Part shown: piece by piece, positions 3,042 through 28,815 of the stretch
How the letters are laid out: every line of letters begins with the position of its first letter
Numbering within the stretch: the first letter of the stretch is position 1
Assembly (NCBI GenBank): GCA_016214785.1
Contig: JACRNV010000001.1
Coordinates: forward strand, 240-64,239
DNA: 64,000 bases
From: Methanobacteriota archaeon
Lineage (GTDB): Archaea; Thermoplasmatota; Thermoplasmata; SG8-5; JACRNV01
Reading direction: 5' to 3'
Notes under the pieces: model-generated
Database searches by the model: none
What the model saw: only the letters and a program-made list of their open reading frames with translations
What the model was told of the DNA's origin: nothing
Program-made: the position numbers and the translations under genes

Positions 3042-3165
3042 CCGGGGATCCCATGGGCAGCGCTTAAATACGGACAATCACATGCATATCGCGGTGAGTA
3101 AGTCCCCCCGAAAGGATGACGGTTACGTAAGTGGCCTGTGACGAGTAAGGGAGGGATCGCCACTT

Positions 3166-3600
3166 TCATCTCCCTTCCCTTATCATTCCGAGCGCCTTCC
3201 TCGTTGTTACTACTGGCGCCTTGCCGATCTTGACCAAGGAGAGGAAGTCGCCATCCCCCGTCACGAAGTAATCGGGCCGGCTGGCCAGGACGAAAGCGTA
3301 ATGTATCGCATCTTCCGCGTCGCGCACCATGCGCACGGCGCTGCGCACGTCTTTGGGCGCGCACGCTCCCTGGTGGAATTCCGAGGACATGGCGATGTCG
3401 TAGAGGAACGCCAGCGCGGAGTCAAGGTCCCTGTCGCCGCTGAACTTCCTCGCGACTACAGCCTCGACCTCTTCGAGGATGTCCTGCGAGAGCACAAGAT
3501 GGTACTTGCCGGAGAGGCCCGCGACCAGAAGCTGCCGCTCGTTGCCGTCAAAGAACAGTCCAGAGATGATTGTGTTTGCGTCCAGCGCGATCCTAAGCAT
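3166..3600 (-). CDS. PIN-domain toxin (PIN_3-type)
   Basis: MLRIALDANTIISGLFF... (first acidic residue), then ...VRDAEDAIHYAFVLASRPDYFVTGDGDFL near the C-terminus. It overlaps the upstream antitoxin gene by 8 nt. Confidence 0.8.
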   Translation of the reverse strand: MLRIALDANTIISGLFFDGNERQLLVAGLSGKYHLVLSQDILEEVEAVVARKFSGDRDLDSALAFLYDIAMSSEFHQGACAPKDVRSAVRMVRDAEDAIHYAFVLASRPDYFVTGDGDFLSLVKIGKAPVVTTRKALGMIREGR

Positions 3601-4873: not shown

Positions 4874-5256
4874 TACGCCTCCCCTACGTGGTATGGTGCG
4901 GGAAGCCCAGCCCTGTCGTCGAGGTCACCCTGAAGCGCGGCAAAGACCGCGTGCGCACGACCGCCTACGTCGACACGGGCGCGTCATTCTCGTTCTTCCA
5001 CTCGGACTTCTGCAGCGCGCTAGGGCTGGACCTGAAGAAGGGCGCGAAGATGGAGGTGCGCCTGGGTGACGGGGACAAGATGCCCGTCTACGTCCACAGG
5101 GTCGGGCTGCGGATAGAAACCCTGGAGGTCAGGTGCGACATAGTATTCTCGAAGAGGCTCGGCTCGGGCATAAACATCCTCGGGCGGCAGGGTCTTCTCG
5201 ATAAGTACAAGGTGACGTTCGACGGGAAGAGGAAGGAGATCGTCTGGTACGACTGA
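4870..5256 (+). CDS. Retropepsin-like clan AA aspartic protease
   Basis: Active-site motif AYVDTGASFSFF, then a hydrophobic GINILGRQGLLDKYKVTFD tail. The TTG at 4870 gives a 4-nt overlap with the upstream stop. The ORF-track ATG at 4816 would overlap the upstream gene by 58 nt. Confidence 0.7.
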   Translation: MIRLPYVVWCGKPSPVVEVTLKRGKDRVRTTAYVDTGASFSFFHSDFCSALGLDLKKGAKMEVRLGDGDKMPVYVHRVGLRIETLEVRCDIVFSKRLGSGINILGRQGLLDKYKVTFDGKRKEIVWYD

Positions 5257-5294
5257 GCGAAAACGCCTCAAATTTCACAAAAGATTTCAGGGCA

Positions 5295-5627
5295 TCATCT
5301 CAGGAAGTCCTCGCGCGGCGGGTGGAAGGTCTCGATGACGGCGGTGTCCCTGCGGAACCGCACGCCGTGGGGGACGTTGGGCGGTATCTGCCAGCCGTCC
5401 CCGTCCTTCACGAGCCTCTGTTCCGTGCCGACGGTGAACATCGCCTCGCCGCTGACGATTATGCCGACCTGCTCGTGCAGGTGCGAGTGCACCGGCAGCT
5501 CTGTCCCAGAGTCGAACTCGTACCAGGTCATCATTATCTTCCCCTCCCTTCCGCAGAGGACCCTCTGCCTCGCCCCCGGGAGGATTTCCCTGACGTTCGC
5601 GCCCTTGACGCTGAAGAAGCCCATCAT
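5295..5627 (-). CDS. Cupin_2 domain protein
   Basis: 110 aa with GTELPVHSHLHEQVGIIVSGEAMFTVG....WQIPPNVPHGV, the two cupin His-containing motifs. Confidence 0.7.
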   Translation of the reverse strand: MMGFFSVKGANVREILPGARQRVLCGREGKIMMTWYEFDSGTELPVHSHLHEQVGIIVSGEAMFTVGTEQRLVKDGDGWQIPPNVPHGVRFRRDTAVIETFHPPREDFLR

Positions 5628-5700
5628 TGCACCGGAGGGGGATGCGCGGCGGAACCCATTAAGGTTTGCAGGGGCACGAGTTAACAGTGTTAATATTTGA

Positions 5701-5767
5701 CGCGCGCGTTTATATATTACATTGGTAAAGTACAGTAAACATTAAATGCCCTGTATCCTATATATTT
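5701..5767 (+). promoter_or_regulatory. AT-rich island with two TATA-like boxes upstream of the giant ORF
   Basis: CGCGCGCGTT followed directly by TATATATT (5709-5718 TTTATATATT), and a second TATATATTT at 5759-5767. The flanks are GC-rich. These lie 100-150 nt upstream of the ATG at 5866, and the region is shared with the divergent cupin gene. Confidence 0.35.
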
Positions 5768-5865
5768 GGAGGCCTGCCAGTGATTGGGCCAATGGATAAT
5801 GCGCGCCCGGGAAGGCGCGGCCGGCGGGCGGAAGCAGGCACGTTCATCGTAGGGCGGGTGCAGAC

Positions 5866-8800
5866 ATGAGCGACAGGGAGCGAGGCAGTGGGCTGGTGAC
5901 AAGGGACTCCGGCAAGGTGCTGGCGACGTTGATTCTATTGGCCATGGTGCTGCCATGCTTCTCGGCGGGCGCGCAGGGGAATATTGCCGCTGGCGGCGAC
6001 AAATATATATCAACTCCGGCGACCCCCTCGCCGTCGTGGGCGTCCATTCTCTGCCCGAACGGCGGTGAGACTTTCAAGGGCGGGGACGTCTGCAGCATAG
6101 GCTGGGGCGTGTCCGGCGTGGCGGACCTCGCGGAGAATCCGATCAGATTATACTACTCGATCGACGGAGGGGCGGACTGGACGCTCATCGCGGAGGACGA
6201 GAAAAACGACGGCTCTTTCGAATGGGCGCTGCCGTACCTGACGTCGCAGGACTGCCTCGTGAAGGTCGAAGCGCTCGGCGTTTCGGGGAATGCGGCCATT
6301 GACGCAAGCGACACGGCCTTCGCCATCGACTCGACGCCGCCCTCTGTGAAGGTCACCGCCCCGAACGGGGGCGAGGCGTGGGCCGGCGGCTCCGTAAGGG
6401 AGATAAGGTGGTCGGCCAGCGACGCGGCGGGCCCGGTCAGCATCTCCTATTCGTCCGACGGAGGGCTCGAGTGGCTCGCAATCGCGGCGGGCGAGCCGAA
6501 CGACGGCTCATTCGGATGGGCAGTGCCGGGTGTCACGAGCAGGGACTGCCTCGTGAGGGTCGAGGCTTCGGACGCGGCCGGCAACGCCGGGCGCGACGCG
6601 AGCGACAGGGCATTCACCATAGAATCGACCTGCCCGAGCGTCAGGGTCCTGGGCCCGCGTGCCGGGGAGGCGCTCAGGGGTGGCGCACTCTGCGCGATAG
6701 AATGGGACGCCTACGACAACTTCGCCCTAGGGAGCAACCCGGTCTCGATATACTATTCCGTCGACGGAGGCGCTAACTGGATTCTCATAGCCGCGGGCGA
6801 GCCCAACGACGGCGCCTACGAATGGAAGGCGCCGGCGGTGGACGCGCCCCGGTGCGTTGTCAAGGTCGAAGTGACCGATTCCGCCGGAAAGGTGGGGAGC
6901 GGCGAGGGGGGCGCGTTCTCGGTGAGCTCGCGCGTGGCCTTCAATGCCGTGACCCAGCTGGCATTCGTCCCGGCGGCGGCAGAGGCAGTAGCGGGCATAC
7001 AGGCCGCGCTTGTCGTCCAGGCGCAGAATGCGGCCGGAGCCCCCGAGGACGTGGCCGTCGACACGGTCGTCCAGCTCTTCACCGCGTCGCCGACCGGGGA
7101 GTTCCGGGCCGCGGGGACGCCGATCGCCGTGACCCAGGTGACGATACCGGCATCGTCCAGCACCGCGCCGGTCGATTACTACGACGAGACCGTGGGCGCG
7201 ACCCCATACACGCTGACGGCGGCGGGCGCGGGCCTGGCGAACGGCACTTGCGCCATGCGCGTCAACGTCGCAGAGCCGTACCTGATAGTGGTCTCGCCCG
7301 GCACCGCGACAGTCATAGTCGGAACGCAGCAGCAGTTCACCGCCCAGGCTTTCGACGAGTACGGCAACGAGATAACGGACGCAACACTCATGTGGTCGAC
7401 GGACCTGGGCGTGGTCAACTACGCGGGGACATTCACGGCCCAGACCGCTCCAGGAAACGGGTTCGTCAACGCCTCCCTCGGGGCGGCTACGGGCTCCGCG
7501 CTCGTCGCGGTCGTCCCGAGCGACCTCCACCACATCGAGGTGACGCCATCGCCGGCCACGGTGCCGGTCGGGGGGACGCAGCTCTTCAGGGCGAATGCCT
7601 ACGACATCTACAGCAACAGGCTGTACGGCGTCGGATTCTCCTGGGGCACGAACGTAGGGTCCATCGACGCATCAGGGCTCTTCGCGGCGCAGACCACGCC
7701 CGGCAACGGGACCGTGATCGCGTCCAACGGCTCCATCTCGGGCCAGGCGTCTGTCCGGGTCGCCGCGGGGGCGGCGGACCACATCACCGTCACGCCCCAG
7801 AACGAGACCGTGGCCGTCGGGGACGAGAAGCAGTATGCGGCGGTGGCGTACGACTCCTACGGCAATGCCATCCCGGGCGTGAAGTTCATCTGGAGCACCA
7901 CGGCCGGCTTCATCAACTCGACCGGATACTTCACCGCGAAGAGCACGCCCGGAAACGGCACGGTCACGGCCAGGAACGGAACCCTCAGCGGCTCGACCAA
8001 CGTCAGCGTGAAGATCGGGCGCGTCCACCGCATAGTGGTGACGCCGGGCGCGGCCTCCATCGTCGTCGCGGGGACGCAGCAGTTCAGCGCCGTGGCATAT
8101 GACATGTTCAACAACCTGATAACCGACGTGGCATTCGACTGGGCGTCGGATGTCGGTTCCGTCGATTCGGGAGGCCTCTTCACGGCCCAGACAACGCCGG
8201 GCGCGGGGTTCGTGCAGGCCATGAACAGCTCCGTCGTGGGGACGGCCAACGTGACTGTCTTCACGGGTCCGCTCGACCACATAACCGTGACGCCGGCGAA
8301 CGCGACAGTGAAGGTCGCCTACTCGCAGCAGTTCGACGCGACGGCGTGCGACGCGTTCGGCAACCCGATTTCGGGCATAGGGTTCGCATGGACGACAAAC
8401 GTGGGAGACATCAACTCGACGGGCTTCTTCACGGCGCAGACCGCGCCGGCCACGGGATTCGTGGAGGCGAGGAACGGCTCTCTCACGGCCACGGCGGCTG
8501 TCCAGGTGAAGGCCGGCGACGTCACCTACATCGACATCTCGCCGGACTCGGCCACGGTCGTAGTGGGCGAGACGCTGCAGTTCTCGTACGTGGCATACGA
8601 CGCCTACGGGAACGTCATAACGGACGCGCTGCTCTTCTGGATAACCAACCTCGGCGTCGTCAACTCGACGGGGTTCTACACCGCGCAGACCACGCCCGGA
8701 TATGGCCTCGTGAGCATCACGTCGGGCACGGTCACGGCCTCGGCCAACGTCACGGTCGTCAAAGGGCCGGTCCACCACATACTGGTCAGCCCGAACCCGG

Positions 8801-20800: not shown

Positions 20801-23800
20801 CGACCAACGGGTCCGTGTCGGGCTCCGCCGCAGTCACCGTCCTGGTAGGCTCGATTGTCAGGATATCGGTCGTTCCCAACTCCGTTGCCGTGACCGTGGG
20901 CTCGACGCTCGCGTTCACGGCGATCGCGTTCGACAGCTTCAACAACGCGATTTCGGGCGTGGAATTCGTCTGGGCTACTGACGTTGGCTCAATAAGTGCC
21001 GGCGGCCAGTTCACCGCCCAGCTCGCGCCTGGCGCGGGCACCGTCACGGCGAGCAACGGGAGCGTGACCGGGACTTCGAACGTCACCGTTGTCGTCGGCA
21101 GCATCTACTACATATCCATCAGCCCGCTCCTGACATCCTTGAAGGTCGGGGAGAGCAGGCAGTTCACGGCCACGGCCTACGACTTCTACAACAACGTCGT
21201 TCCTGGCGTGTCGTTCGCATGGACTACCGACGTGGGGTCGATAAGCCCCACGGGCCTATTCACGGCGCAGACCGCGCCAGGCTCCGGGACTGTCACGGCC
21301 ACGAACGGCTCGGTCCACAACCACGCAATCGTGGACGTCCTGGCGGGGGACCTGCACCACATAGCGGTCTCTCCGAGCCCCGTCTCCATCGTCGTGGGCG
21401 GCAGCCAGCAGTTCACGGCGGTCGCATACGACGCCTACGGCAACGCATTGCCCGCTGTGGCCTTTGCATGGGCCAGCGACATGGGCTCGATAGACTCGGC
21501 GGGCCTGCTGGCGGCGCGCACGACCACTGGGTCCGGGACGGTCACGGCCTCCAACGGGACGGTAAGCGGCAGCGCTAACGTGACTCTCACCCCGGGCCCG
21601 CTCCATCACGTCATCGTAACACCTGACCCGGTCACCGTCATAATCAATGGGCTTGTCCAGTTCGTCGCGACGGCATACGACTCCTACAACAACACGATAC
21701 CCGTCGTCGCGTTCGCTTGGTCGACCACGGCCGGCGCCATCGATTCGGCGGGCAATCTCGTCGCTCAGGCGTTCCCTGGCTCGGGGACGGTAACGGCCTC
21801 GAACGGCTCGTTCTCGGACTCTGCCAGCGTCGAGGTCGTCAACGTGCCGATTGACCATATCGTCGTCGTGCCGGACCCGGCCAATGTAACGGTGGGCACA
21901 GCCCAGGCATTCACGGCGATAGCGTTCGACGCGCTCAACAACCCCATCTCCGGCGTCCTATTCGTGTGGACGACGAACGTCGGGGCCATTGACCAGCAGG
22001 GGAGGCTGGCGGCGCAGACGACGCCAGCGACGGGCTTTGTGATGGCCAGGAACGGCACGCTTACCTATTCAACCACGGTGAACGTCGTGCCCGGGGCGGT
22101 CTGCCGCGTCTCGATCAGCCCGGCCAGCGCGAATGTCACGGTCGGTTCCTCTATAGCGTTTACGGCCACTGCCTACGATGTGTATGACAACGCCGTCCCA
22201 GGCGCGACCTTTGCCTGGGCGACGAACGCGGGCACTGTCACCGGCATTGGGATATTCACCGCACAGACGACGCCGGGCGCGGGCACGGTGACGGCGTCTA
22301 ACGGGACCGCCAGCGCGACGGCGAACGTGCAGGTTGCCATAGGCCCCGTGGACCACATAGTCGTCACGCCGGACCCGGCGACGATAACGGTCGGGGCGTT
22401 CTTGCAGTTCTCAGCGACGGCCTACGATGCTTACAATAACCTCGTGGTCGGCGCGGCCTTCTCGTGGAGCACGAACGTCGGGCTCGTCAATGCGACGGGG
22501 TACCTGACTGCGCAGACCGCGCCGGCCGCGGGATGGGTGCGCGCGACGGCCAGCTCCGTCGTTGGCAGCGCCAGCGTCCAGGTCGCTGTCGGCCCGCTGC
22601 ACCACATCACCGTCACTCCTAGCTCGGTCAATGTCATAGTCGGCGGCTCCCAGCAATTCAACGCCGTGGCGTACGACATCTACGGCAACGTCATCGCAGG
22701 CGCGGGCTTCACGTGGAGCACAAACGTCGGGACCGTGGACCCCACGGGGCTGCTGGCCGCGCAATCGACCCCTGGCAGCGGCTTTGTCGGGGCGGCGAAC
22801 GGTTCCATCGTAGGTTCCGCGGCCGTCACCGTGGTCAGCGTCGCCATAGACCACATCCTCGTCGCGCCAAGCCCGGCCACCGTAGTCGTGGGCGCGTCGC
22901 AGGCATTCACGGCGGTCGCCTACGACGCCTCGAACAACCCGATAGGGGGCGTCATTTTCACGTGGGCCACGAACGTCGGCGCCATAAATGCGGCAGGGCT
23001 ATTCACCGCGCAGGGGGCGCCAGGGAACGGCACGGTAACGGCCACGAATGGCTCGGTGACAGGCTCGGCGCCCGTCAGCGTTGTGAGCGTGGCAATCGAC
23101 CATATCGTCGTATCTCCAAACCCGGCAACGGTAGCCGTTGGAGGCACGCAGTCATTCACCGCCACGGCCTACGACGCGCTCGGGAACGCCATCCCGGGAG
23201 TGCTATATGCGTGGACGACCGGTGTCGGTGCAGTAGATCAGCTAGGCTTCTTCACTGCCCAGACGCACCCGGGAATTGGGACGGTGACGGCGACGAACGG
23301 GTCGGTTAGCGCATCGGCCTACGTCAACGTCGTGCCGGGGACGCTCGATCACATAGTGATAGTTCCCGACCCGGCATCAGTGACGGCAGGTGGAACCAAA
23401 GCCTTCATAGCTGTAGCGTTCGATGCCTTCAACAATGTCATCCCTGGCGTCGGGTTCTCATGGTCGGCAAACATCGGCACGATAGACGCAGCGGGAGTGC
23501 TATCTGCCCAGACTGCCGCCGCCACTGGAACGGTGACGGCGTCTAACGGCACGGTCGGCTGGTCCGCCATCGTCAGCGTGATTCCGGGGCCCGTGAGCTA
23601 TATCATGGTAACGCCGAACCCCGCATCGGTCGTCGTGGGCGGGACGCAGGCCTTCGCCGCGTCGGCCTACGACGCCTACGGCAACGCGATATTCGGCATT
23701 TCATTCTCGTGGACGACCGACGTCGGGGCCATCAACTCCGGCGGGCTCTTCACCGCTCAGGCAGCGCCGGGCAGCGGCACCGTCACGGCGGCCAACGGGA

Positions 23801-26800
23801 CAGTCTCGGGCTCGGCCAACGTGACCGTGACGGGCGCTTCCATCGACCACATCGCAGTTACGCCAAACCCGGTGTCGGTCGTTGCCGGGGGCTCGCAGGC
23901 CTTCGCGGCAGTGGCCTACGACCTATACGGCAACGCGATACCCGGCGTTCAGTTCTCTTGGGCGACGGACGTCGGCTCCATAGATGCCGCGGGCCTGTTC
24001 ATTGCGAGGACGCTGCAGGGCTTGGGCGTCGTGACCGCGTCGAACGGGTCTGTCAGCGCGTCGGCGACTGTGAATGTCGTCCCCGGCCCGCTCGACCACA
24101 TCTTCGTCATACCGGACCCGGCATACGTCATTGTGGGCGGTTCGAGGGCATTCAACGCGATAGCCTTCGATGTGTACGGCAATGCGATTTCCGGCGTATC
24201 CTTTGCCTGGACGACCGACGTGGGCGCCATCACCGCGGCGGGCGCCTTCACCGCGCAGTTGGTGGCGGCCAGCGGAATCGTCACGGCGACGAACGGCTCC
24301 GCAAGCTACTCCGCCACGGTCAATGTCCTGCCCGGCCCGGTAGCCTCCATAATCGTAAGCCCGGACCCGGCTTCGGTCATCGTCGGAGGTACGGCTTCCT
24401 TCACGGTCGTGGCCTACGACGCCTATGGCAACATCGTGACCAACGCCCAGCTAGCCTGGTCCACGAACGTGGGCACGATAACGACCACGGGCCTCCTCAC
24501 GGCGCAGACCGTGCCGGGAGCCGGGACGGTAACGGCCTCCAACGGGACCGTGAGCGATTCCGCAGCCGTGAACGTGCTCGTGGGCGCCTTGCACCACATA
24601 ATAGTCTCCCCAGGCCCAGTGAACGTCACCGTTGGCGCGAGCCAGCCGTTCACGGCCGTCGCATACGACCAGTACGGCAACGTCATCGCAGGCGTGGCGT
24701 TCGCATGGGGCGCGAACGTCGGAGCAATTGACGCATCGGGCGTTCTCACGGCAAGGACCACGCCGGGCGCGGGCATCGTCACTGCATCGAACGGGACGGT
24801 CGGCGGCAATGCAAATGTCAATATCGTTGCCGGGCCGCTCCACCACATCGCAGTAGGCCCGGACACGGCCAATGTAATCGTGAACGGGCTGCTGCAGTTC
24901 GTCGCAACCGCCTACGATGTGTACAACAACACGCTGACGGGCATCGGCTTCGCCTGGGGCACCGATGTTGGTACAATCAGTACGACCGGCCTCTTCACTG
25001 CGTGGCTGACGCCCGCAACTGGCACAGTGACCGCGACAAACGTCTCCATATCGGGCTCAGCCAGCGTCACGGTTACCAATGCCGTAGTCGACCATATAAT
25101 CGTCATGCCCGACCCGGCCACGGTCGTGGTCGGCGGCACTCTGGCATTCACAGCCATCGCGTACGACGCATTCAACAACGCCATCTCAGGCATTACCTTC
25201 GTCTGGACGACCGATGTCGGCACCGTCAGCTCTACGGGTGTCCTCACAGCACAGGTGACGCCGGGCGCGGGCACTGTCACTGCGACCTACGGCGCCGTAT
25301 CGGACTCCGCGTCCGTGGCGGTAATGATCGCGAACATCGACCACATTGTCGTTGCGCCGAACCCCGTCTCAGTCGAGGCGACCGGTACGCAGGCCTTCAC
25401 AGGGACCGCATATGACGTGTACGGCAATGCAATAACAGGGGTCAGCTTCGTTTGGACGACGGACATCGGAACCATCGATTCGTCCGGGCTCTTCACGGCG
25501 CGGGCGCTCCAGGGCATCGGGCACGTCCTCGCCGCCAACGGCACTGTCAGCGGCGAGGCGCACGTCGACGTAGTCCCCGGGCCGCTGGACCACATAGTGA
25601 TCGTGCCAGACCCCGCCTACGTTGTAGTGGGTGGCACGAGGGCGTTCATCGCGGTCGCATTCGACGCCTACGGCAACGCGCTGTCCGGCATGAGCTATGT
25701 GTGGACCACCGACATGGGCTCCATCGGCGCCTCCGGCCTCTTCACGGCGCGGCTGCAGACTGGGACGGGCACAGTGACGGCGACGAACGGCTCTGTCAGC
25801 CATTCCGCAGTCGTGTATGTCGTACCCGGCGCGATCGACCATATAATCGTCACGCCAAACCCGGCATCGGTCGTCGTCGGCGGCTCGGTCGCATTCACGG
25901 CGACGGCATACGATGCGCAGGATAACCAAATATCGGACGCAATATTCACATGGACCACGGACGCGGGCTCGGTCGGCGCGACCGGCCTGCTGACCGCGCG
26001 CACGACTCCTGGGTCCGGCACCGTCACAGCCACTAACGGCACGGTTTCGGGCTCGGCAATCGTGAACGTCCTGGTCGGAAGCGTCGATCACATCGCAGTT
26101 TCCCCCGACCCGGTTACGGTTGTTGTTGGCAGCTCCCAGCAGTTCACGGCAGTGGCATACGATGTCTACAACAACGTCGTGTCTGGTGCAGTCTTTCTGT
26201 GGGCAACGAACGTAGGTTCTGTGGTCGGCACGGGCCTGCTGACGGCGCAGACCGCGCCCGGCTCGGGTACGGTCACAGCATCCAACGGCACGGTGAGCAG
26301 CTCGGCGAACGTCACTGTCGTTCATGGCGTCATCGACCACATCATCGTCTCCCCCAGCCCGGCCAGCGTTGCAGCGGGAGGCACGAAATCTTTCACTGCC
26401 GTTGCCTATGACTTCTACGACAATCAGATAGAGGGCGCGAGCTTCGCGTGGTCCACGAATGTGGGCGTCATGAACACGACGGGCTTCTACGTGGCCCAGA
26501 CTGCGATTGGGACAGGTGTGGTGACAGCGACGAGCGGTGGCGTAAGCGGCTCCGCGATCGTGAATGTGACGCCAAGCAACCTGCACCATATAACGGTCGC
26601 GCCCAACCCGGCCACGGTGGTTGTGGGCGGGACGCAGGCATTCTCCGCAGTCGCGTACGACATTTATAACAATGTAATATCGGGAGCAGGGTTCGTCTGG
26701 GGGACCAATGTCGGTTCCATTGACGGCCTAGGCGCACTGACCGCTAGGACAACCCCCGCCCAGGGGACGGTCATCGCCATCAACGGCTCGGTGAGCGGCA

Positions 26801-28815
26801 GCGCGAACGTTTCCGTGATCGCGGGGCCGGTCGATAACATCGTCGTGACCCCGGACCCTGTGAACGTCATAGTCAACGGCGTGTTGGCCTTCACGGCGAC
26901 GGCCTACGACTCTTACGGCAACACGGTGGCAGGCGCATCGTTCGCCTGGTCGGCCAACATCGGCTCCATCGATTCCTCCGGCGTCTTCACAGCCCCTCCG
27001 ACCGTTACCATAGGCGGGGTCACTGCGACCAACGGCACGGTCTCGGGCTCCGCGAGCGTCTCTGTCATAGCCGCCACGGTCGACCACATTGTGGTCACGC
27101 CAGACCCGGCAACGGTGGCGGTGGGCGGCACGCAATTATTCGCCGCCACAGCCTACGACGCGCTCGACAACGTCATCTCGGGCGTGCTGTTCGCTTGGGG
27201 CACCGACATGGGGACGATCGACGCCGCGGGCAAGCTCACCGCCAGGACGACCCCCGGCTCGGGGACGGTCACGGCCACGAACGGCTCCGTCAGCGACTCT
27301 GCCGTCGTCAATGTCATGGTCGGCCCGATAGACCACATAACAGTGGCTCCCAGCCCCGTGACGGTAACTGTCGTGGAGTGCCAGCAGTTCACGGCGACGG
27401 CATACGACGCATATGACAACCTTGTCTCAGGCGCTGTGTTCTCATGGAGCACGAACGTCGGGTTGATAAACTCCACCGGCTACCTTACAGCGCAGATGAC
27501 GCCGGGGGCCGGATGGGCCCGTGCAGCGAGCGGGGGCGTTACGGGCAGCGCCTCGGTGGATGTGGTCCCTGGCGCGATGAATCACATCGCCGTGACGCCG
27601 GACCCGGTCAACGTTATCATAAACGGCGTCCTGCAGTTCAGCGCCGTCGCCTATGATGTCTATGACAATGCCATCCCTGGAGTTACCTTCCTGTGGTCGA
27701 CAGATGTCGGCTCCGTGACCCCGACTGGCCTCTTCACTGCGCAAGGCTCCGTTGGCACGGGTGTGGTAACTGCCGTGAACGGCTCCTTTTCGGATTCGGC
27801 CCAGGTGAACGTAGTCAACGTTGCGATAAAGAGCATCGTCGTCTCGCCCGACCCCGCTTCGGTTGTGATAGGCGGCTCGACCAACTTCACCGCCACGGCC
27901 TACGACGACTTCGGCAACGCCATATACGGCATAGTTTTCGCATGGTCGACGGACGTCGGCGTCATAGACACGTCCGGCCACTTCACGGCGCAGGCCGTCC
28001 CGGGAGCGGGCTCGGTGACTGCTATGAACGGGTCGGTGACAGGCAGCTCGTACATCTCCGTGGCCGAGCACTCGTTCCAGGTAAGCCTCATCTGGGGCTG
28101 GAACCTCGTATCGCTCCCCCTGATTCAGAACGACACTGACATACGCACCGTCCTCTCCTCCATTGACGGCAAATGGGACAGGGCCATGTGGTACGACCCA
28201 TGGTACCCGGCGAACCTGTGGAAGCAGTACAACGTCAACTGGTCCCCGTCGCTGAACGACCTGACGCAGCTCAACCACACGATTGCCTTCTGGCTGCACA
28301 TGGTCATGAACGCCACGCTCACCGTGTACGGCTCGCTGCCGTCGAACATGAGCATAGCCCTGCACGCGGGCTGGAACATGGTCGGCTACCCCGTCATCGA
28401 CGACAGCTCCTACACGATTGGAATGCTGAGGGCGGAGACTGGCGCGGCAATCGTCGAGGGCTTCGACCGAAACGCCACGTATCTCACGAGGATACTCGCC
28501 GACAACTACGTGATGAAGAAAGGGGAGGGATACTGGGTGTACATCCCGAGCCCGACATTCTGGAACGTGGTCAACTCCATGCCGGGCAACCCGGGCGCTC
28601 CCTCCGGGGGGACCGGCGGTGATAACATCGCCTCATCGACGCCGGTGGGCGCCGACCCCCCCGCGCAGTCATCCTTCGATGGAATCAGGGACGTGGGATT
28701 CGATGGGATGCTCGTGAGCGCGGCCGTCGATGGCACGCTCCTCCTTGCAGCGCTCTCGGTATCGCTTTGGCTCCTGCTCCGGTTGAGGGGATGCCGCCGG
28801 AAAGGGGACGGGTGA
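5866..28815 (+). CDS. Giant (7,649 aa) secreted, C-terminally membrane-anchored multi-Ig surface protein (Big_2 x66, DUF11 x5, VWA)
   Basis: Single uninterrupted ORF. It has an N-terminal signal-like segment (KVLATLILLAMVLPCFSAGAQG) and a C-terminal TM plus basic tail (LLLAALSVSLWLLLRLRGCRRKGDG). Recognisable domain repeats run throughout (see the repeat features). All overlapping off-frame ORFs are Arg/Gly/Asp-rich artefacts. Confidence 0.9.
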   Translation: MSDRERGSGLVTRDSGKVLATLILLAMVLPCFSAGAQGNIAAGGDKYISTPATPSPSWASILCPNGGETFKGGDVCSIGWGVSGVADLAENPIRLYYSIDGGADWTLIAEDEKNDGSFEWALPYLTSQDCLVKVEALGVSGNAAIDASDTAFAIDSTPPSVKVTAPNGGEAWAGGSVREIRWSASDAAGPVSISYSSDGGLEWLAIAAGEPNDGSFGWAVPGVTSRDCLVRVEASDAAGNAGRDASDRAFTIESTCPSVRVLGPRAGEALRGGALCAIEWDAYDNFALGSNPVSIYYSVDGGANWILIAAGEPNDGAYEWKAPAVDAPRCVVKVEVTDSAGKVGSGEGGAFSVSSRVAFNAVTQLAFVPAAAEAVAGIQAALVVQAQNAAGAPEDVAVDTVVQLFTASPTGEFRAAGTPIAVTQVTIPASSSTAPVDYYDETVGATPYTLTAAGAGLANGTCAMRVNVAEPYLIVVSPGTATVIVGTQQQFTAQAFDEYGNEITDATLMWSTDLGVVNYAGTFTAQTAPGNGFVNASLGAATGSALVAVVPSDLHHIEVTPSPATVPVGGTQLFRANAYDIYSNRLYGVGFSWGTNVGSIDASGLFAAQTTPGNGTVIASNGSISGQASVRVAAGAADHITVTPQNETVAVGDEKQYAAVAYDSYGNAIPGVKFIWSTTAGFINSTGYFTAKSTPGNGTVTARNGTLSGSTNVSVKIGRVHRIVVTPGAASIVVAGTQQFSAVAYDMFNNLITDVAFDWASDVGSVDSGGLFTAQTTPGAGFVQAMNSSVVGTANVTVFTGPLDHITVTPANATVKVAYSQQFDATACDAFGNPISGIGFAWTTNVGDINSTGFFTAQTAPATGFVEARNGSLTATAAVQVKAGDVTYIDISPDSATVVVGETLQFSYVAYDAYGNVITDALLFWITNLGVVNSTGFYTAQTTPGYGLVSITSGTVTASANVTVVKGPVHHILVSPNPATVVVGNTRAFSAVACDAYNNTISGVIFAWATGVGSIDSSGFFTAQTFPGLGDVSATNGSITGSAQVIVMPDSLDHISVTPNPASVVAGGTRQFAATGCDRFGNEIAGLTYAWSTDVGSIDAGGLLSAQTTTGSGLVFAANGSISGSAAVNVVPGPVFRIDVVPGPATVTVGSSLQFTATGYDLYNNLIPGMAFDWSTNAGSVDSGGLFTAQTTPGSGYVRALNGSVNGTVQVAVVIGDADHIVVLPNPVSVKVGETQQFSATAYDAFDNVIADAVFTWGTWLGIVNSTGFFTAYTIARVGLVNATFGSVAGSATVEVLADVLDHIVVIPSTVSVTVGFSQAFTALAYDVYNNPISGLTFLWSTNVGVVNFAGLFTARTATGAGYVRAAVGAINGSATVIIVPGPAHHINVVPNPATVPAGEEQQFTATAYDIYNNQIAGAVFSWSTNVGAIDSSGRFTAQGTPAVGNVTATNGTLGKSAKVTVVPGSVDHIAVAPNPVTVVVGGEQSFSAVAYDRFDNVVAGATFIWTTNVGFVDAGGHLTAKTTPGVGVVTAISGTISGFASVTVIVGPLDHIFISPDPATVQVGGGQQFTAVAYDFYNNVLSGVGFAWSIDIGTVTQTGLFSAPIVPGEGTVIASNGSVSGTAQIYIVVGNVNHIIVSPNPATVVVGASQAFSAVAYDVYDNIITGATFIWTTNVGSIGSGGVLTAQTVPGAGFTRARNGSVTGSSAVTVVVGPVSRITVLPNPTTVVVGNTRLFSATAYDSFNNIVPNAVFSWSTNVGAIDSAGLFTAQTSPGIGLVTAANGTITGSANVTVTIGPIDHITVAPNPASVPVGESLQFTAAAYDLYSNPIAGATFTWSTNAGVSVVNSMGYFTAQTTPTAGTVSATSDAITGSANVNVVPGPVAILSVVPDPVTLVVGSTQAFSILAYDAYGNSILNVEAVWTTNVGTVDSSGLLTAQTTPGSGIVTAQNGTVSGYASVTVIKGPLDHIVVSPNPWTMSADASKQFGAAGYDLYDNLIDITPVWAVNGGGAVNATGYFAAHAVGTWTIFANDSGVSGQATITVLHGAAVSIDVTPATATITADDTVLYSATAYDADGNAWEVTTGTVFTHNDPKGGMVQNLYSAGQVGTWTVTGVYSGLTDFASVTVNPGAAALLVMDSPSAVDAGAGFSVSVTVFDGDGNVKTDYLGTVGLGSTDPYPATLPADHTFTLPNAGTYSFTNLILYTRTSQNVTARDTAVPALADTDAIAVRGPAIQPVKLVPEKAEPGNVLLYRIYFNNTGENAAANVWLNDTLPSGVTFIDASDGGSYAAGVVRWVFSGILPGIWSVTANVSANAGLANGVLLTNWAYCNHTLASGARMPETRANATTRIFYLPLIDASKTVERIFKDIVVDPDQWGQCTVANTISYKVNITNLQSITDSVDMDKTSKLGWPIALLNTDWTPLADTNGNSYPDTGNLAPSGGMNSIMVNVTVPYNAIVGQEDISYIIGTSYNDANIVDVAQINTTVIPRAPADVVMTIDNSGSMANIEDQQRWVPMTLDISYWAAGWSQLQVRLYFTSNAAGVSGGWTIDDFEVQGNNNDTRFFDNFDGVPRGWSNLVADQWETGTPIGGTDPPSAPSVPNVLGTDVLSGVDGNNQYPNNALWDAISPAIDVSTDTTVKVKFQSWIAVADTADLCYVEIRNGATAWTRIWGCSKIEVLKYCARDFVAGLDPSDRVAVYSFGGTGNEQVIQSQAFLTMTPANKATTLALLATFTANQNTPIWDTIGTSVSYAMTGGWDSFTPPHTPVVVAMTDGDDWGTGGRETGSETYAPGAPSRATAGNVIRTWETNPRSDGNVWGSPVRTYGSIYRLTTAAPQAWSTFALTGDEATRTGLLNAPCAVFTIGLGCNPQGSNSSAAGYISQTALVVGAPAAVSTTSYAYNFTSEYDLRQVANTSKNGSYYFAPTSSQLDAIYIQIAAAVAQLGGTAAAGAKGTISAGDSLMYKLYYNNTGIGVAADVWVNDTLPSCLQLVASNATWSFVNGQYCWHFLNVAPGTHWFWIEVKIDNTVVDSQNVTNAVYVNCTDAEGNALPGSNDTASVDIDEPILSVEKVANRTSAPPGGRINYTIWYNNTGSSMALYVWINDTFDPNTVYISDSAPVPPVINGNKYSWKVFRVMPGSNYFNITVQVINGAAGGTIIGNLAAAEYTNSNNVKHSGASNSNVVNTSVINTRIDVAKTVDKPISDPGKSLTYTIYFNNTGTDVANNVWINETLPLDVTYVAQTTASNATHTLVSWGVSGRYLWFNFSNVQPGNHWFTIIATVNSGTPDGTWMDNYVNLNYTDDVGFCLPYSSATALSVCGVLNVTKTSDLTVIPSTGTTVIRLTIQVKNCHPTYVINNAKANDTLPPGITFAGNVAASKGSWSWNGTVLNWSVGSLLPLEAATISFDVSITPTGVGTYPINYGAFANGTTDTGYLENATSLALNVTARNAPILDFSLWPSSVISKSVGSFSLNVTNIGTTGGMFYNASNDAIEVRIPSAWGAPSGMSGPASWEYQWNGTTRMLTFYYNGTLYYNWASGTTLAFNFGLQAPATQNHDGFLTNGSIHDSIGTKYGFSKTLYVDSVIGPLDHIVVSPSPVSVPVGGTQAFSAAAYDAYNNQITAATFTWGTNMGSVNATGFFTAGTSAGTGFVSATSGSVTGSATVQVTAGPVHHITVSPSPVSVVVGGTQAFTATAFDVYDNPVSGAAFTWATDVGTINAAGSFTARNATGSGIVNATCGSVVGNASVTLIPAAVYRIVVTPNPATVVVGAGQQFAAVAYDVYNNSIPGVSYAWTTSVGSVNATGFFTAQNAPGAGTVTAASGPVSNYTDVSVVAGPLDHIIVTPDPATVTVGQTRPFAAVAYDVYNNALSGVGFAWSTNMGSIDSAGLLIAQTTPGSGYVSAKNGSVYGNATVNVVAGALDHIVVTPDSVSVVVGTTQQFNAVAYDAYNNQLTGVGFAWSTNVGSIDATGLLTARTTPGSGQVTAANGTKSDFATVDVIVGAIDRISVSPNPATVVVGRTKAFTGTAHDIYNNTIPGVVFTWTTNVGTIDPYGVLTAQTMPGNGTVTATNGSVTGSASVSVVIGPASRIEVTPSSATVVIGDTRQFAAQAFDAYDNPIPNATFIWTTNVGIVNSAGLFTAQTVPANGTVSARVGSVTGSASVEVTIGPVHHIIVLPNPASVAVGGTVLFSAAAYDAYNNPIPGVAFAWSTNVGSIDSFGLLTAQMVPGLGTVSASNGSVVGAASVEIVVGGIYYVTISPSFADVEVGEALLFVATAYDYYDNVVPGAVFTWAADVGSVDASGLFVAQTVPGSGYVTATNGTQSASAAVNVTHGPLDRIAVSPDPVTVPVGAAQAFSATAFDEYGNAIPGVSYVWTTNVGTIDSTGAFTARTTPGTGYVTAANGTISDSATVEVVVGPIDHIVVTPGSISIIVGGNQSFSAVAYDSYNNSIQGVSFVWSTDVGSVDSAGHFTAQTFPGTGLVNASNGTFSGTASVEVDLGPVHHISVSPDPATVTVGTTMAFNATAYDQYNNVIPGVDFLWTTNVGAIDAAGTLTAQTTPRTGIVTARNNTRTYSASVTVVPGAVHHISVAPGTAVVVVGATRSFNATAYDVYNNAIPGVVFSWSTDVGSIDPAGTFTAQTTPATGNVAASNSSVTGSAGVDVIVGPPHHIAVTPNSTAVTAGQGRQFSAVAYDIYNNTIFGATILWSTNVGSINSTGYLTAQTTSATGWAHATCGNATGSADVQVIPEALYRISVTPSPATVVVGQAQQFNATGYDFYNNAIPGMAFAWSTNVGTIDANGSFTARITPGIGTVTAQNGTVSKSVNVTVAIGGIDHIVVVPDPLTITVGASQQFIAVAYDAYNNVLPGATFGWATNVGTINATGYYTAQIVPGAGFVTATNGTVSKTVTVTVVHGPLDHITVMPTPLSITVGGAQDFTATAYDAYSNAISGVGFAWSTDVGTVDVAGHFTASTIPGIGTVTATNGSVSGSAAVTVLVGSIVRISVVPNSVAVTVGSTLAFTAIAFDSFNNAISGVEFVWATDVGSISAGGQFTAQLAPGAGTVTASNGSVTGTSNVTVVVGSIYYISISPLLTSLKVGESRQFTATAYDFYNNVVPGVSFAWTTDVGSISPTGLFTAQTAPGSGTVTATNGSVHNHAIVDVLAGDLHHIAVSPSPVSIVVGGSQQFTAVAYDAYGNALPAVAFAWASDMGSIDSAGLLAARTTTGSGTVTASNGTVSGSANVTLTPGPLHHVIVTPDPVTVIINGLVQFVATAYDSYNNTIPVVAFAWSTTAGAIDSAGNLVAQAFPGSGTVTASNGSFSDSASVEVVNVPIDHIVVVPDPANVTVGTAQAFTAIAFDALNNPISGVLFVWTTNVGAIDQQGRLAAQTTPATGFVMARNGTLTYSTTVNVVPGAVCRVSISPASANVTVGSSIAFTATAYDVYDNAVPGATFAWATNAGTVTGIGIFTAQTTPGAGTVTASNGTASATANVQVAIGPVDHIVVTPDPATITVGAFLQFSATAYDAYNNLVVGAAFSWSTNVGLVNATGYLTAQTAPAAGWVRATASSVVGSASVQVAVGPLHHITVTPSSVNVIVGGSQQFNAVAYDIYGNVIAGAGFTWSTNVGTVDPTGLLAAQSTPGSGFVGAANGSIVGSAAVTVVSVAIDHILVAPSPATVVVGASQAFTAVAYDASNNPIGGVIFTWATNVGAINAAGLFTAQGAPGNGTVTATNGSVTGSAPVSVVSVAIDHIVVSPNPATVAVGGTQSFTATAYDALGNAIPGVLYAWTTGVGAVDQLGFFTAQTHPGIGTVTATNGSVSASAYVNVVPGTLDHIVIVPDPASVTAGGTKAFIAVAFDAFNNVIPGVGFSWSANIGTIDAAGVLSAQTAAATGTVTASNGTVGWSAIVSVIPGPVSYIMVTPNPASVVVGGTQAFAASAYDAYGNAIFGISFSWTTDVGAINSGGLFTAQAAPGSGTVTAANGTVSGSANVTVTGASIDHIAVTPNPVSVVAGGSQAFAAVAYDLYGNAIPGVQFSWATDVGSIDAAGLFIARTLQGLGVVTASNGSVSASATVNVVPGPLDHIFVIPDPAYVIVGGSRAFNAIAFDVYGNAISGVSFAWTTDVGAITAAGAFTAQLVAASGIVTATNGSASYSATVNVLPGPVASIIVSPDPASVIVGGTASFTVVAYDAYGNIVTNAQLAWSTNVGTITTTGLLTAQTVPGAGTVTASNGTVSDSAAVNVLVGALHHIIVSPGPVNVTVGASQPFTAVAYDQYGNVIAGVAFAWGANVGAIDASGVLTARTTPGAGIVTASNGTVGGNANVNIVAGPLHHIAVGPDTANVIVNGLLQFVATAYDVYNNTLTGIGFAWGTDVGTISTTGLFTAWLTPATGTVTATNVSISGSASVTVTNAVVDHIIVMPDPATVVVGGTLAFTAIAYDAFNNAISGITFVWTTDVGTVSSTGVLTAQVTPGAGTVTATYGAVSDSASVAVMIANIDHIVVAPNPVSVEATGTQAFTGTAYDVYGNAITGVSFVWTTDIGTIDSSGLFTARALQGIGHVLAANGTVSGEAHVDVVPGPLDHIVIVPDPAYVVVGGTRAFIAVAFDAYGNALSGMSYVWTTDMGSIGASGLFTARLQTGTGTVTATNGSVSHSAVVYVVPGAIDHIIVTPNPASVVVGGSVAFTATAYDAQDNQISDAIFTWTTDAGSVGATGLLTARTTPGSGTVTATNGTVSGSAIVNVLVGSVDHIAVSPDPVTVVVGSSQQFTAVAYDVYNNVVSGAVFLWATNVGSVVGTGLLTAQTAPGSGTVTASNGTVSSSANVTVVHGVIDHIIVSPSPASVAAGGTKSFTAVAYDFYDNQIEGASFAWSTNVGVMNTTGFYVAQTAIGTGVVTATSGGVSGSAIVNVTPSNLHHITVAPNPATVVVGGTQAFSAVAYDIYNNVISGAGFVWGTNVGSIDGLGALTARTTPAQGTVIAINGSVSGSANVSVIAGPVDNIVVTPDPVNVIVNGVLAFTATAYDSYGNTVAGASFAWSANIGSIDSSGVFTAPPTVTIGGVTATNGTVSGSASVSVIAATVDHIVVTPDPATVAVGGTQLFAATAYDALDNVISGVLFAWGTDMGTIDAAGKLTARTTPGSGTVTATNGSVSDSAVVNVMVGPIDHITVAPSPVTVTVVECQQFTATAYDAYDNLVSGAVFSWSTNVGLINSTGYLTAQMTPGAGWARAASGGVTGSASVDVVPGAMNHIAVTPDPVNVIINGVLQFSAVAYDVYDNAIPGVTFLWSTDVGSVTPTGLFTAQGSVGTGVVTAVNGSFSDSAQVNVVNVAIKSIVVSPDPASVVIGGSTNFTATAYDDFGNAIYGIVFAWSTDVGVIDTSGHFTAQAVPGAGSVTAMNGSVTGSSYISVAEHSFQVSLIWGWNLVSLPLIQNDTDIRTVLSSIDGKWDRAMWYDPWYPANLWKQYNVNWSPSLNDLTQLNHTIAFWLHMVMNATLTVYGSLPSNMSIALHAGWNMVGYPVIDDSSYTIGMLRAETGAAIVEGFDRNATYLTRILADNYVMKKGEGYWVYIPSPTFWNVVNSMPGNPGAPSGGTGGDNIASSTPVGADPPAQSSFDGIRDVGFDGMLVSAAVDGTLLLAALSVSLWLLLRLRGCRRKGDG
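6052..6930 (+). repeat. Three ~98-aa N-terminal beta modules with an Asp-box-like motif
   Basis: The pattern GGE.(W/F).GG....I.W.....-I(S/Y)YS.DGG..W..IA.GE.NDG(S/A)..W..P.V.S..C.V.VEA.D.AGN....SD.AF.I occurs three times. Confidence 0.7.
7270..12255 (+). repeat. Big_2-like Ig array 1: 20 tandem units (17 of 83 aa, one of 85 aa, two divergent of 82/84 aa)
   Basis: Unit consensus is GP.DHI.V.P.PATV.VG..QQF.A.AYD.YNN.I.G..F.W.T.VG.ID..G.FTAQT.PG.G.V.A.NGS..GSA.V.V. Unit starts verified at 7270, 7519 and 11005 (7270+249n); later units start at 11509, 11758 and 12004. Confidence 0.9.
13345..14690 (+). other. von Willebrand factor A (VWA) domain with intact MIDAS, interrupted by a ~168-aa jelly-roll insert (13381-13885)
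   Basis: DVVMTIDNSGSM (DxSxS) ... [insert] ... KIEVLKYCARDFVAGLDPSDRVAVYSFGG ... NTPIWDTIG ... VVVAMTDGDD. Confidence 0.75.
14715..16190 (+). repeat. Four DUF11 (conserved repeat domain) units; a fifth lies at ~12560-12950
   Basis: GDSLMYKLYYNNTGIGVAADVWVNDTLPSCLQLV, GGRINYTIWYNNTGSSMALYVWINDTFDPNTVYI, GKSLTYTIYFNNTGTDVANNVWINETLPLDVTYV, ...NNAKANDTLPPGITFAGNV; the upstream unit reads GNVLLYRIYFNNTGENAAANVWLNDTLPSGVTFI. Confidence 0.75.
16615..28068 (+). repeat. Big_2-like Ig array 2: 46 tandem units, each 83 aa / 249 nt
   Basis: I parsed the translation into 46 consecutive 83-aa units. Unit starts were confirmed on the DNA at 16615, 16864, 21346, 23089, 23836, 24583, 25330, 26575 and 27820, all equal to 16615+249n. 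Confidence 0.9.

Follow-up and report, generated by a model that had tools for sequence, protein, structure and literature searches.

A giant predicted surface fibre of a Thermoplasmata-type archaeon

The window analyzed in this study, a 64,000-nt stretch of contig JACRNV010000001.1 (assembly GCA_016214785.1), contains an open reading frame (ORF) of 7,649 codons plus a stop codon (5866..28815, forward strand), which begins with ATG and encodes a protein with a predicted mass of 776 kDa and a pI of 4.3. We consider it likely, with a probability of roughly 0.7, that an uncultured Thermoplasmata-type archaeon bears this product on its cell surface as a giant fibre, acidic and N-glycosylated, which acts as an adhesin or tether. 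A surface fibre had been proposed in an earlier reading of the same DNA (the original prediction), and this proposal is supported by an N terminus resembling a Sec signal, a predicted hydrophobic anchor and basic tail at the C terminus, 66 immunoglobulin (Ig)-like units of the Big_2 type and an excess of glycosylation sequons. The domain order given in that reading proved largely correct, and all of its repeat and domain counts hold.

At the N terminus, a Sec-type signal peptide (aa 1-36; 5866..5973; all features of the giant gene are on the forward strand) was called heuristically from a charged n-region, the hydrophobic stretch VLATLILLAMVLPCF and a following SAGA-QG, in agreement with the signal-like start noted earlier. 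At the opposite end, a disordered linker of Gly, Pro, Ser and Asp (aa 7570-7623; 28573..28734), recognized from its composition and from AlphaFold2 predicted local distance difference test (pLDDT) values below 50 over aa ~7573-7621, leads to the hydrophobic anchor core TLLLAALSVSLWLLL (aa 7624-7638; 28735..28779), for which AlphaFold2 predicts a helix over aa 7624-7642, and to the basic, predicted cytoplasmic tail RLRGCRRKGDG (aa 7639-7649; 28780..28812) read from the translation. The Gly/Pro linker, transmembrane (TM) segment and basic tail that had been described are thus supported by the modelled disorder and terminal helix and by the translation itself.

Repeat arrays and integrity of the reading frame

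When 5866..28815 was translated, a stop codon was encountered only at its end. Under the base composition of the sequence itself, in which one stop is expected per ~39 codons, the chance of a stop-free run of 7,649 codons is ~1e-87, and each of the five other frames contains 48-406 stops across the same span. The ORF listing, the single terminal stop and this chance value confirm that the frame is uninterrupted, as claimed. The GC content at third codon positions (GC3) of the giant gene is 0.84, uniform and matching that of the adjacent genes; because of this likeness, the gene is native to the contig. An origin as a foreign island, virus or plasmid was considered and rejected, as GC3 is that of the neighbours and archaeal housekeeping genes lie on the flanks.

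A hidden Markov model (HMM) bootstrapped from one unit of the giant protein itself detected 66 Big_2-like units with a strict period of 83 aa, 20 at aa 472-2141 and 46 at aa 3586-7409, reproducing the exact counts of the original prediction. The first array forms the distal stalk (7279..12288; Pfam Big_2, 1.8e-9), in which the last two units are divergent; the second forms the proximal stalk (aa 3586-7403; 16621..28074; Pfam Big_2, 7.5e-27). The Pfam family Big_2 (PF02368) was passed with 37.9 bits in array 1 and 93.5 bits in array 2 (gathering cutoff, 22.8), and the unit consensus contains the typical Big_2 motif ..W.S.N..VA.VD..G.VTA..G. With the units aligned to the HMM, their mean identity is 50% at the amino acid level (range, 25-67%), and arrays 1 and 2 differ little. 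The best pair of units shows ~71% nucleotide identity, and no exact internal repeat is longer than 25 nt. Neither higher-order periodicity nor a gradient of similarity between neighbours was found within the arrays, and there is therefore no sign of recent array expansion. Judged by their sequences, the repeat units are old and divergent, and this low level of identity makes a collapse or chimerism of the repeats during assembly unlikely.

The protein contains 161 N-x-S/T sequons, compared with 90 +/- 9 in shuffled sequences, and a sequon occurs at unit position 68 in 49 of the 66 units. Searches of 1.84 billion representative proteins with the unit profile returned 25,296 proteins at E <= 1e-3; the Big_2-like unit family is common. 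The giant protein (P0021 in this search) was well ahead of all others, with 66 stretches and 6,395 bits, and carries the most copies of all 1.84 billion. The runner-up by bit score (P0022) is a protein of 4,834 aa with 38 stretches and 1,761 bits, and the second-highest unit count was found in a protein of 5,095 aa with a lower score than the runner-up (P0031; 54 stretches). Further long proteins with such units measure 5,978 aa (25 stretches) and 6,713 aa (26 stretches).

The identical 7,649-aa product was found only once in a collection of 15 billion proteins, on one 64,993-nt contig, and forms a singleton cluster. Five colinear ortholog fragments with identities of 46-56% were recovered from other assemblies. 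Fragment P0043 (aa 60-1038 of the giant protein, 51% identity) spans the tip, the spacer and array 1; P0050 (aa 1534-2422, 56%) spans array 1, an Ig-like unit, a DUF11 unit and the next domain; P0020 (aa 2739-3210, 46%) spans the VWA domain and two DUF11 units; and both P0003 (aa 7222-7586, 53%) and P0004 (aa 7326-7575, 50%) span array 2, the C-terminal domain (CTD), the linker and the anchor. P0003 and P0020 lie on contigs of 1.4-2 kb. Most domain junctions are replicated in other assemblies; the coverage by these close relatives leaves out aa 2423-2738 (from the DxSxS motif through the insert of the VWA domain to helix alpha1) and aa 3211-3585 (the final DUF11 units and the stretch leading into array 2).

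These data also bear on the scenario in which the ORF is an assembly artefact or a decaying pseudogene, that is, a chimeric or mis-joined array that has stayed open by chance. Its occurrence on a single contig as a singleton cluster would fit such a scenario, as would the insert in the VWA domain (see below), which is unique among the VWA relatives. However, the stop-codon statistics, the shortness of the longest exact repeat and the maximum nucleotide identity between units, the strict register kept across 66 units, the uniform GC3, the exact restoration of the VWA frame after the insert and the colinearity of five fragments over the tip/array 1, array 1/Ig/DUF11, VWA/DUF11 and array 2/CTD/anchor junctions all argue against it, and we regard it as barely credible.

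A reinforced module in the middle of the fibre

Between the two stalks lies a set of non-repeat domains. One DUF11 unit (unit a; aa 2236-2345; 12571..12900; Pfam DUF11, 4.6e-8) follows the distal stalk and an Ig-like unit, and four further units (aa 2948-3445; 14707..16200) follow the VWA domain, where the triad alignment described below and the colinear fragment P0020 support their extent. In the whole protein, DUF11 (PF01345) matched with 6.4e-33 and 113.9 bits (cutoff, 24.6) in five stretches and TIGR01451 with 2.3e-35 and 120.4 bits (cutoff, 24), which agrees with the 1 + 4 units counted before. DUF11 has been renamed CLIPPER and described as a CnaA-like isopeptide stalk domain of fibrillar adhesins, archaeal ones included (PMC12617251). 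In the crystal structure of a CLIPPER domain (9IFR), a Lys-Asn isopeptide bond is formed under catalysis by an Asp (K715/D748/N806; PMC12617251). In all five units of the giant protein, a Lys / Asp / Asn triad (with Glu for Asp in unit d) falls in single alignment columns, for example K2239 / D2272 / N2326 in unit a. The spacing in units a-d is 30-34 residues from Lys to Asp and 54-63 from Asp to Asn; unit e was placed by alignment only, and the Lys of unit b is a few columns off those of the other units. A search of PDB sequences with the DUF11 block yielded nothing significant.

Because these units have the identity of CLIPPER domains and keep the triad in all five copies, they are probably stalk-type and isopeptide-locked. 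The DUF11 units had been counted as part of a ligand-binding head; this assignment was not sustained, as they read as reinforced stalk and the head would consist of the VWA domain and its MAM-like insert. Accordingly worded, the middle of the fibre reads as one VWA/MAM binding module clamped between mechanically reinforced domains, not as three kinds of binding domain.

The VWA domain itself is split by a 163-aa MAM-like insert directly after its DxSxS motif. Its N-terminal piece (13336..13392) comprises strand beta1 and the DNSGS motif (aa 2500-2504; nt 13363-13377) of the metal ion-dependent adhesion site (MIDAS); the jelly-roll insert (aa 2510-2672; 13393..13881; Pfam InhA-like_MAM) occupies the beta1-alpha1 loop; and the C-terminal piece (aa 2673-2947; 13882..14706) supplies the MIDAS Thr (in NTPIWD) and Asp (in TDG, aa 2772-2774). 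The MIDAS residues are complete, and T-P-I-W-D and T-D-G are invariant in the VWA alignment. The native sequence gave no Pfam VWA match at E <= 0.01. When aa 2513-2672 were removed, VWA_2 was matched at 9.5e-5 (23.4 bits; cutoff, 27) and VWA at 3.9e-4 (21.1 bits; cutoff, 23.8). Word-indexed homologue searches with the head region returned at least two and at least one proteins. Two homologues, P0001 and P0002, have VWA domains that pass the Pfam cutoffs; the giant protein's domain is 34% identical to that of P0001 (E 4e-27), and the alignment to both continues on either side of the insert. In P0001 and P0002, helix alpha1 follows within a few residues after DNSGSM, and the insert is absent from these two proteins and from 12 of 12 metagenome relatives of the VWA subfamily, in all of which the VWA domain is contiguous and MAM is unmatched. 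The predicted VWA domain with a MIDAS therefore stands, with all MIDAS residues and homology to VWA domains that pass Pfam, but as a domain interrupted by an insert; the jelly roll, which had been taken for a separate module, is instead a MAM-like domain within the VWA beta1-alpha1 loop. This arrangement appears to be a unique feature among the homologues examined.

The insert matched InhA-like_MAM (PF20773) with an E value of 8.5e-6 and 25.8 bits, just under the cutoff of 26.9. Profile positions ~100-177 come first in the native order of the insert, and a re-ordered construct matched in a single stretch over profile positions 48-163 with 22.5 bits, all scores being below the gathering cutoff; the insert may thus be circularly permuted relative to the profile. 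Neither the insert-free VWA domain nor the MAM insert had a significant match among PDB sequences. An AlphaFold2 model of VWA plus MAM, built from a four-sequence alignment, had a mean pLDDT of 34, with only its order of secondary structures compatible with a Rossmann-like fold. In VWA domains, the beta1-alpha1 loop lies next to the MIDAS face. Given the position of the insert in this loop and the established topology, the MAM-like jelly roll would be placed beside the MIDAS face.

The distal tip and the spacer domains

The distal tip is formed by three Asp-box Ig-like modules of ~100 aa each (aa 58-354; 6037..6927), which are supported by their motifs, by Pfam and by the colinear fragment P0043. 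The Asp-box motifs S-x-D-G-G-x-x-W are located at aa 98, 196 and 298, matching the three modules first described, and Pfam matches in this region include Big_7 (7.4e-11), Reelin_subrepeat-B (1.2e-7) and Kre9_KNH (2.1e-5). No significant match to PDB sequences was obtained with the N-terminal 470 aa. The view that the head lies in the middle of the fibre and not at its tip holds for the VWA module, but the tip is not bare; since three Asp-box modules occupy the N-terminal end, the distal tip may hold a second binding site.

Three spacers had been interpreted as Ig-like, namely a beta-rich spacer (aa 355-471; 6928..7278) without a Pfam match that is conserved in P0043, an Ig-like unit (aa 2142-2235; 12289..12570) that is conserved in P0050 and in the locus L005 and present in three copies in P0035, and a beta-rich unit (aa 3446-3585; 16201..16620) without a Pfam match whose homologue in L005 abuts the CTD. 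Their beta-rich nature and their conservation in relatives were confirmed, but the Ig fold finds no family match. A further beta-rich domain without a Pfam match precedes the VWA domain (aa 2346-2490; 12901..13335). It had been called NEW3-like, which could not be confirmed, as no NEW3 match was found up to E = 1 for aa 2351-2500. Because homologues precede the VWA domain in P0002 and L092 and six copies occur in P0045, this domain is, on comparative grounds, a real one.

The composition of the tip and the mid-fibre module is relevant to the hypothesis that the protein is a protective or structural coat, a halomucin-like glycocalyx or spacer that shields a wall-less cell, holds water and ions and keeps viruses and particles off without binding a specific ligand. 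The low pI of 4.3, the richness in sequons and a huge repetitive stalk without a catalytic domain are in line with this hypothesis, and halomucins, for which a protective role has been proposed, are among the huge proteins of archaea (PMC11573180). Nevertheless, a coat would not explain the complete and conserved MIDAS motif, the CLIPPER triads suggest load bearing, and the distinct modules outside the repeats, both at the tip and in mid-fibre, are of the kind borne by adhesins, with mucin-like low-complexity sequence being absent. A coat is thus an unlikely role for this protein.

A C-terminal domain shared by the secretome of the lineage

The CTD (aa 7404-7569; 28075..28572), delimited by an AlphaFold2 model, is an undescribed beta domain. 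Block means of pLDDT were 85-98 over aa ~7404-7563 and at least 93 in all blocks but one. In the model the domain is beta-rich with two short helices and consists of two similar halves, each starting with GWN[LM]V[SG]xP. Pfam and NCBIfam contain no family that matches it, and Foldseek found no similar structure in the PDB or BFVD at E <= 1e-3, so that the claim of a novel C-terminal beta domain holds against these four databases.

Seventeen database proteins carry the CTD behind Kelch, beta-helix/NosD, DUF11 or Big_2-like regions, and a scan of one genome per GTDB species gave 329 matches. The following statistics refer to the best 79 of these 329, which come from 17 metagenome-assembled genomes (MAGs) and comprise 97 ORFs. 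These loci are labelled Thermoplasmata, Thermoplasmatota, Methanomassiliicoccales, Ca. Proteinoplasmatales or unclassified euryarchaeote, and single MAGs hold up to at least a dozen copies. The CTD ends 4-6 residues before the stop codon in 86 of the 97 ORFs, and a crude heuristic detected a signal-like N terminus in 71 of the 77 that are complete at the 5' end. Its passengers include NosD/beta-helix (20 of 50), BNR, CARDB, FG-GAP, peptidases M14 and C25, GH18, endonuclease I, amidase_3 and cyclophilin. No further CTD gene is present within the 64-kb window. Because of its extreme C-terminal position, the signal-like N termini and the varied passengers, the CTD has the profile of a shared module for surface retention or sorting of the secretome of this lineage.

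In six of the 97 ORFs, and in the giant protein, the CTD is followed by an acidic linker of ~50 aa with Gly and Pro, and then by a TM helix with a basic tail; the same anchor feature is seen in P0003, P0004, L033, L004, L012, L022, L016 and L002. As the CTD precedes the membrane anchor in the giant protein and in these six ORFs, it is unlikely to be a cleaved export signal and more likely acts in the mature protein at the level of the envelope. The motif [AVT]-S-S-G(G) stands directly before the helix in five of the six anchored ORFs (L033, L004, L012, L022 and L016) and in P0003 and P0004, and the giant protein has V-D-G-T in its place. An SSG motif followed by a TM segment and an Arg/Lys tail has the tripartite shape of exosortase, archaeosortase and rhombosortase sorting signals. 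The tails of the relatives gave NCBIfam scores that were all below threshold (LPXTG, 15.3 vs 15.9; GlyGly-CTERM, 13.6 vs 15.5; also MYXO- and PEP-CTERM). The tail of the giant protein has no PGF motif, and neither the CTD plus tail nor the 42-aa tail at E <= 10 matched an NCBIfam sorting domain; the absence of PGF-CTERM noted before is therefore corroborated.

Two relatives place the giant protein among simpler ones. P0030 (2,678 aa) consists of a gingipain-type Peptidase_C25 domain, fn3, a beta-propeller, a NosD beta-helix, ~10 Big_2-like units and a terminal CTD without a TM segment; it shows the plan of the lineage, in which a passenger is followed by a Big_2-like stalk and the CTD. The layout of P0030 also parallels that of bacterial gingipains bearing the C-terminal domain of the type IX secretion system (T9SS). 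The 5'-truncated ORF L005:3-4454 of Thermoplasmata archaeon RS_9_71 has Big_2-like units, an Ig-like unit, DUF11 units and a last Ig-like unit fused to the CTD, and lacks the VWA/MAM domain and the second array. Since L005 fuses its last Ig-like unit straight to the CTD, the comparison suggests that the proximal 46-unit stalk and the VWA module are additions to a simpler plan, and the giant protein looks like an elaboration of a plan common in the lineage.

We also considered whether the giant protein could be a cellulosome-like scaffold, in which the anchored CTD and the stalk recruit CTD-bearing enzymes through CTD-CTD or stalk contacts. Such a division of labour could accommodate the finding that just six of the 97 CTD proteins have an anchor of their own, the rest ending 4-6 residues past the CTD, and the resemblance of the CTD to an internal pseudo-dimer. 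However, nothing resembling a cohesin/dockerin pair was seen, the stalk is built of Big_2-like units of the ordinary kind and CTD-CTD contact is without support, which makes a scaffold very unlikely. A broader proposal, which we would sooner doubt than accept, is that the CTD is the characteristic module of a system for surface display or sorting, so far undescribed, in sediment Thermoplasmata. Such a system would dock secreted enzymes and adhesins, dozens of them in each genome, onto probably wall-less envelopes; a minority of these would also be anchored through the SSG motif, TM segment and basic tail, a signal that an enzyme of the rhombosortase or archaeosortase kind could process. The largest client would be the giant protein, whose MAM-in-VWA head would represent a novel composite site for metal-dependent binding.

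Comparison with known surface proteins

The class of fibrillar adhesins has reportedly been defined by Monzon and Bateman. Of its features, tandem stalk repeats are present in the giant protein, with Big_2 at 7.5e-27 over 66 units, and so is a recognised adhesive domain, the MIDAS-complete VWA domain, whose own Pfam score is below threshold. The giant protein resembles the bacterial members of this class (SiiE, MpIBP and LapA-type proteins) in having tens of Ig-like units of the Big_2 type, non-repeat binding modules including VWA and, as predictions from the sequence and the AlphaFold2 model, an export signal and a surface anchor, as well as in its rod of hundreds of nm, which is an estimate here, and the divergence of its adjacent units. 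It differs from them in being archaeal, in its anchor, which is a predicted C-terminal membrane helix after the CTD and not an LPXTG signal, a retention module of the type I secretion system (T1SS) or an outer-membrane anchor, and in the position of its binding module, which has a stalk on either side, a further set of modules being located at the tip. It is likewise set apart from RTX giant adhesins of the T1SS (LapA, MpIBP), as no RTX family was found among the whole-protein Pfam matches and its C terminus is a predicted TM anchor.

A VWA domain bearing a MIDAS amid isopeptide-type Ig domains is also found in the Gram-positive pilus tip adhesins RrgA and GBS104, the bonds in the giant protein being predicted, and in each case an adhesive domain would be gripped by mechanically locked modules; GBS104-like_Ig (PDB 3TXA) is listed in Table 1 of PMC12617251. 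In contrast to these adhesins, the giant protein is one 776-kDa chain and not part of a sortase-assembled pilus, its VWA domain carries a MAM-like jelly roll and it has no PDB sequence match.

Among archaea, the adhesin-like proteins of Methanobacteriales are similar in being repeat-rich, membrane-anchored strings of Ig-like Big domains and accessory domains, the anchor of the giant protein being a predicted one (bioRxiv 10.64898/2026.08.03.742440; PMC11532034). The giant protein differs from them in its Thermoplasmata-type host, its 83-aa Big_2-like unit, its VWA/MAM/CLIPPER mid-module and its CTD, and the likeness is a functional analogy only. Archaeal proteins of more than 5,000 aa are few, and most of the huge ones carry Laminin_G_3 or Big_3_5 domains (PMC11573180). 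Halomucin and other such proteins share with the giant protein an archaeal origin, an extracellular location, which is predicted here, a length above 5,000 aa, acidity and probable glycosylation (PMC11573180), whereas the giant protein has no Laminin_G_3 or Big_3_5 match in Pfam and has the architecture of a stalked adhesin. The original prediction had regarded its size as extreme for prokaryotes; it is rare in archaea, but there is precedent in adhesin-like proteins of Methanobacteriales, which can exceed 8,000 aa (bioRxiv 10.64898/2026.08.03.742440).

The CTD is comparable to the T9SS CTD, SLH, PGF-CTERM/archaeosortase and GlyGly-CTERM/rhombosortase systems, in each of which one C-terminal module is found on many unrelated secreted passengers, with many paralogues per genome. 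The parallel to the T9SS extends to a gingipain-type C25 peptidase (P0030) among the CTD clients, and the anchored relatives show a motif, a TM segment and a basic tail. Unlike these modules, the CTD is ~165 aa long, has no sequence or fold match to any of them and is followed by a TM helix in seven proteins; a search for the T9SS C-terminal sorting domain in particular gave no NCBIfam, Pfam or Foldseek match for the CTD. In conclusion, the giant protein is a new and very large member of the known giant Ig-repeat adhesin-like surface proteins, in a lineage where none has been described.

Proposed mode of action and its weighing

In the mechanism that we propose, a Sec signal would export the chain, and the C-terminal hydrophobic helix with its positive-inside tail would hold it in the membrane. 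A flexible linker of ~55 aa would raise the folded 165-aa CTD to the level of the envelope, where the domain probably docks secreted proteins of the lineage to an envelope component. The 46 Big_2-like Ig units would form a proximal rod of ~160-200 nm bearing the reinforced mid-module, in which the metal-site VWA domain, with the MAM-like jelly roll beside the site, would be flanked by the five CLIPPER/DUF11 domains; a further 20 Ig units (~70-90 nm) and the three Asp-box modules at the tip would follow. At 3.5-4.5 nm per Ig-like unit, the whole fibre would measure ~0.3 µm, in accord with the 0.25-0.3 µm estimated originally. Ligand capture would be metal-dependent at the VWA/MAM face, possibly with a second event at the tip, and the CLIPPER domains would bear the load, so that the cell could be tethered to particles, polymers or other cells at distances of up to ~0.3 µm.

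One specialized version of this role is a cell-cell contact device for a specific syntrophic partner, host or prey, with the two binding regions bridging cells. It would make use of two spatially separated non-stalk modules, and giant archaeal surface proteins have been discussed as mediators of cell-cell contact (bioRxiv 10.64898/2026.08.03.742440; PMC10266531). Nothing in the window points to a partner, however, and hydrolases and beta-helix proteins predominate in the CTD secretome, a composition in keeping with the degradation of detritus; SG8-5 ('Ca. Proteinoplasmatales') and its relatives are uncultured sediment Thermoplasmata known as active degraders of detrital protein (PMC9123169). 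A contact device is also a sub-case of adhesion, from which it is inseparable here, and as a distinct explanation we rate it as quite improbable.

Several points weigh against the interpretation of the protein as an adhesive surface fibre. First, the exact sequence is known from one contig, without independent re-assembly. Second, the signal peptide and the anchor are heuristic calls, and the hydrophobic core has only ~15 residues. Third, the VWA domain scores under the Pfam gathering cutoffs even when freed of its insert, the MAM match falls just below its own cutoff, and the poor VWA+MAM model (pLDDT 34) gives no geometry of the insert relative to the MIDAS. Fourth, the role proposed for the CTD is derived from its position and distribution. 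Finally, the fibre itself is predicted from sequence, adhesion is a deduction, and the isopeptide bonds and the glycosylation are predicted from motifs only.

Host and genomic context

The archaeal origin proposed for this DNA is supported by an AMP phosphorylase and by the best 79 CTD loci, which lie in MAGs of the Thermoplasmata/Methanomassiliicoccales type. The AMP phosphorylase, an equivalog match to TIGR03327 (680 bits; cutoff, 535), is located further downstream and adjoins a gene resembling ribose-1,5-bisphosphate isomerase; the two enzymes form a pair in an archaeal salvage pathway. Several proteins of the window had their best matches in the fetched Thermoplasmata loci, at identities of 65% or less.

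The giant gene is preceded by a 238-nt intergenic stretch that contains a candidate promoter, the archaeal TATA-box-like element TTTATATAT (5709..5717, forward strand), read from the sequence; the sole AT-rich consensus match within 5200-6000 lies at this place, and its promoter function is putative. Scans for tRNAs and Rfam families revealed no match related to the giant gene. Upstream genes encode DpnI-like, Schlafen/AlbA, PIN and cupin proteins; downstream are genes for a STAND AAA_16-TPR ATPase, an M32 carboxypeptidase, an HD/OB nuclease, CARDB and an ABC-2 transporter, an M50 protease, a NosD/PKD protein and a KaiC/GvpD-like ATPase. None of the genes adjacent to the giant gene resembles a dedicated secretion or processing partner.

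Upstream, a Schlafen/AlbA_2-HATPase_c_4-wHTH gene (1114-2520) is enclosed by a full-length DpnI-like gene (202-1026) and a partial copy of it that covers the C-terminal half (2568-3041), and a DNA repeat (538-837 / 2550-2849) is 87% identical; this arrangement may record an insertion or a duplication event within a restriction/defence island. An Rfam DUF3800-X RNA motif (3092-3162, forward strand; 55.3 bits; gathering cutoff, 38.2) separates the DpnI fragment from the PIN gene (3166-3600, reverse strand). Two large STAND-type AAA_16 + TPR ATPases are encoded on the reverse strand at 28876-32079 and 47982-50474, the former converging on the giant gene so that their stops are only 60 nt apart; no functional link to the giant gene is apparent. 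An operon-like trio at 35666-38569 (reverse strand), comprising an ABC ATPase, an ABC-2 permease and a 382-aa CARDB-domain protein, represents an envelope-associated set. Finally, a NosD/beta-helix + PKD surface protein of 992 aa without a CTD (42040-45018, forward strand) coincides with a dip in GC content (0.50 vs ~0.61) and may have been acquired horizontally.

Implications

Both bacteria and archaea are known to encode giant adhesin-like proteins with Ig repeats, and the giant protein, which is expected in kind, adds no new principle. The gene provides a nearly fully parsed example of what would be the largest surface structure of these archaea. The part worth following up is the CTD family: this lineage-wide, unannotated domain would define a surface-associated secretome and is a target for family curation, structure determination and binding studies.

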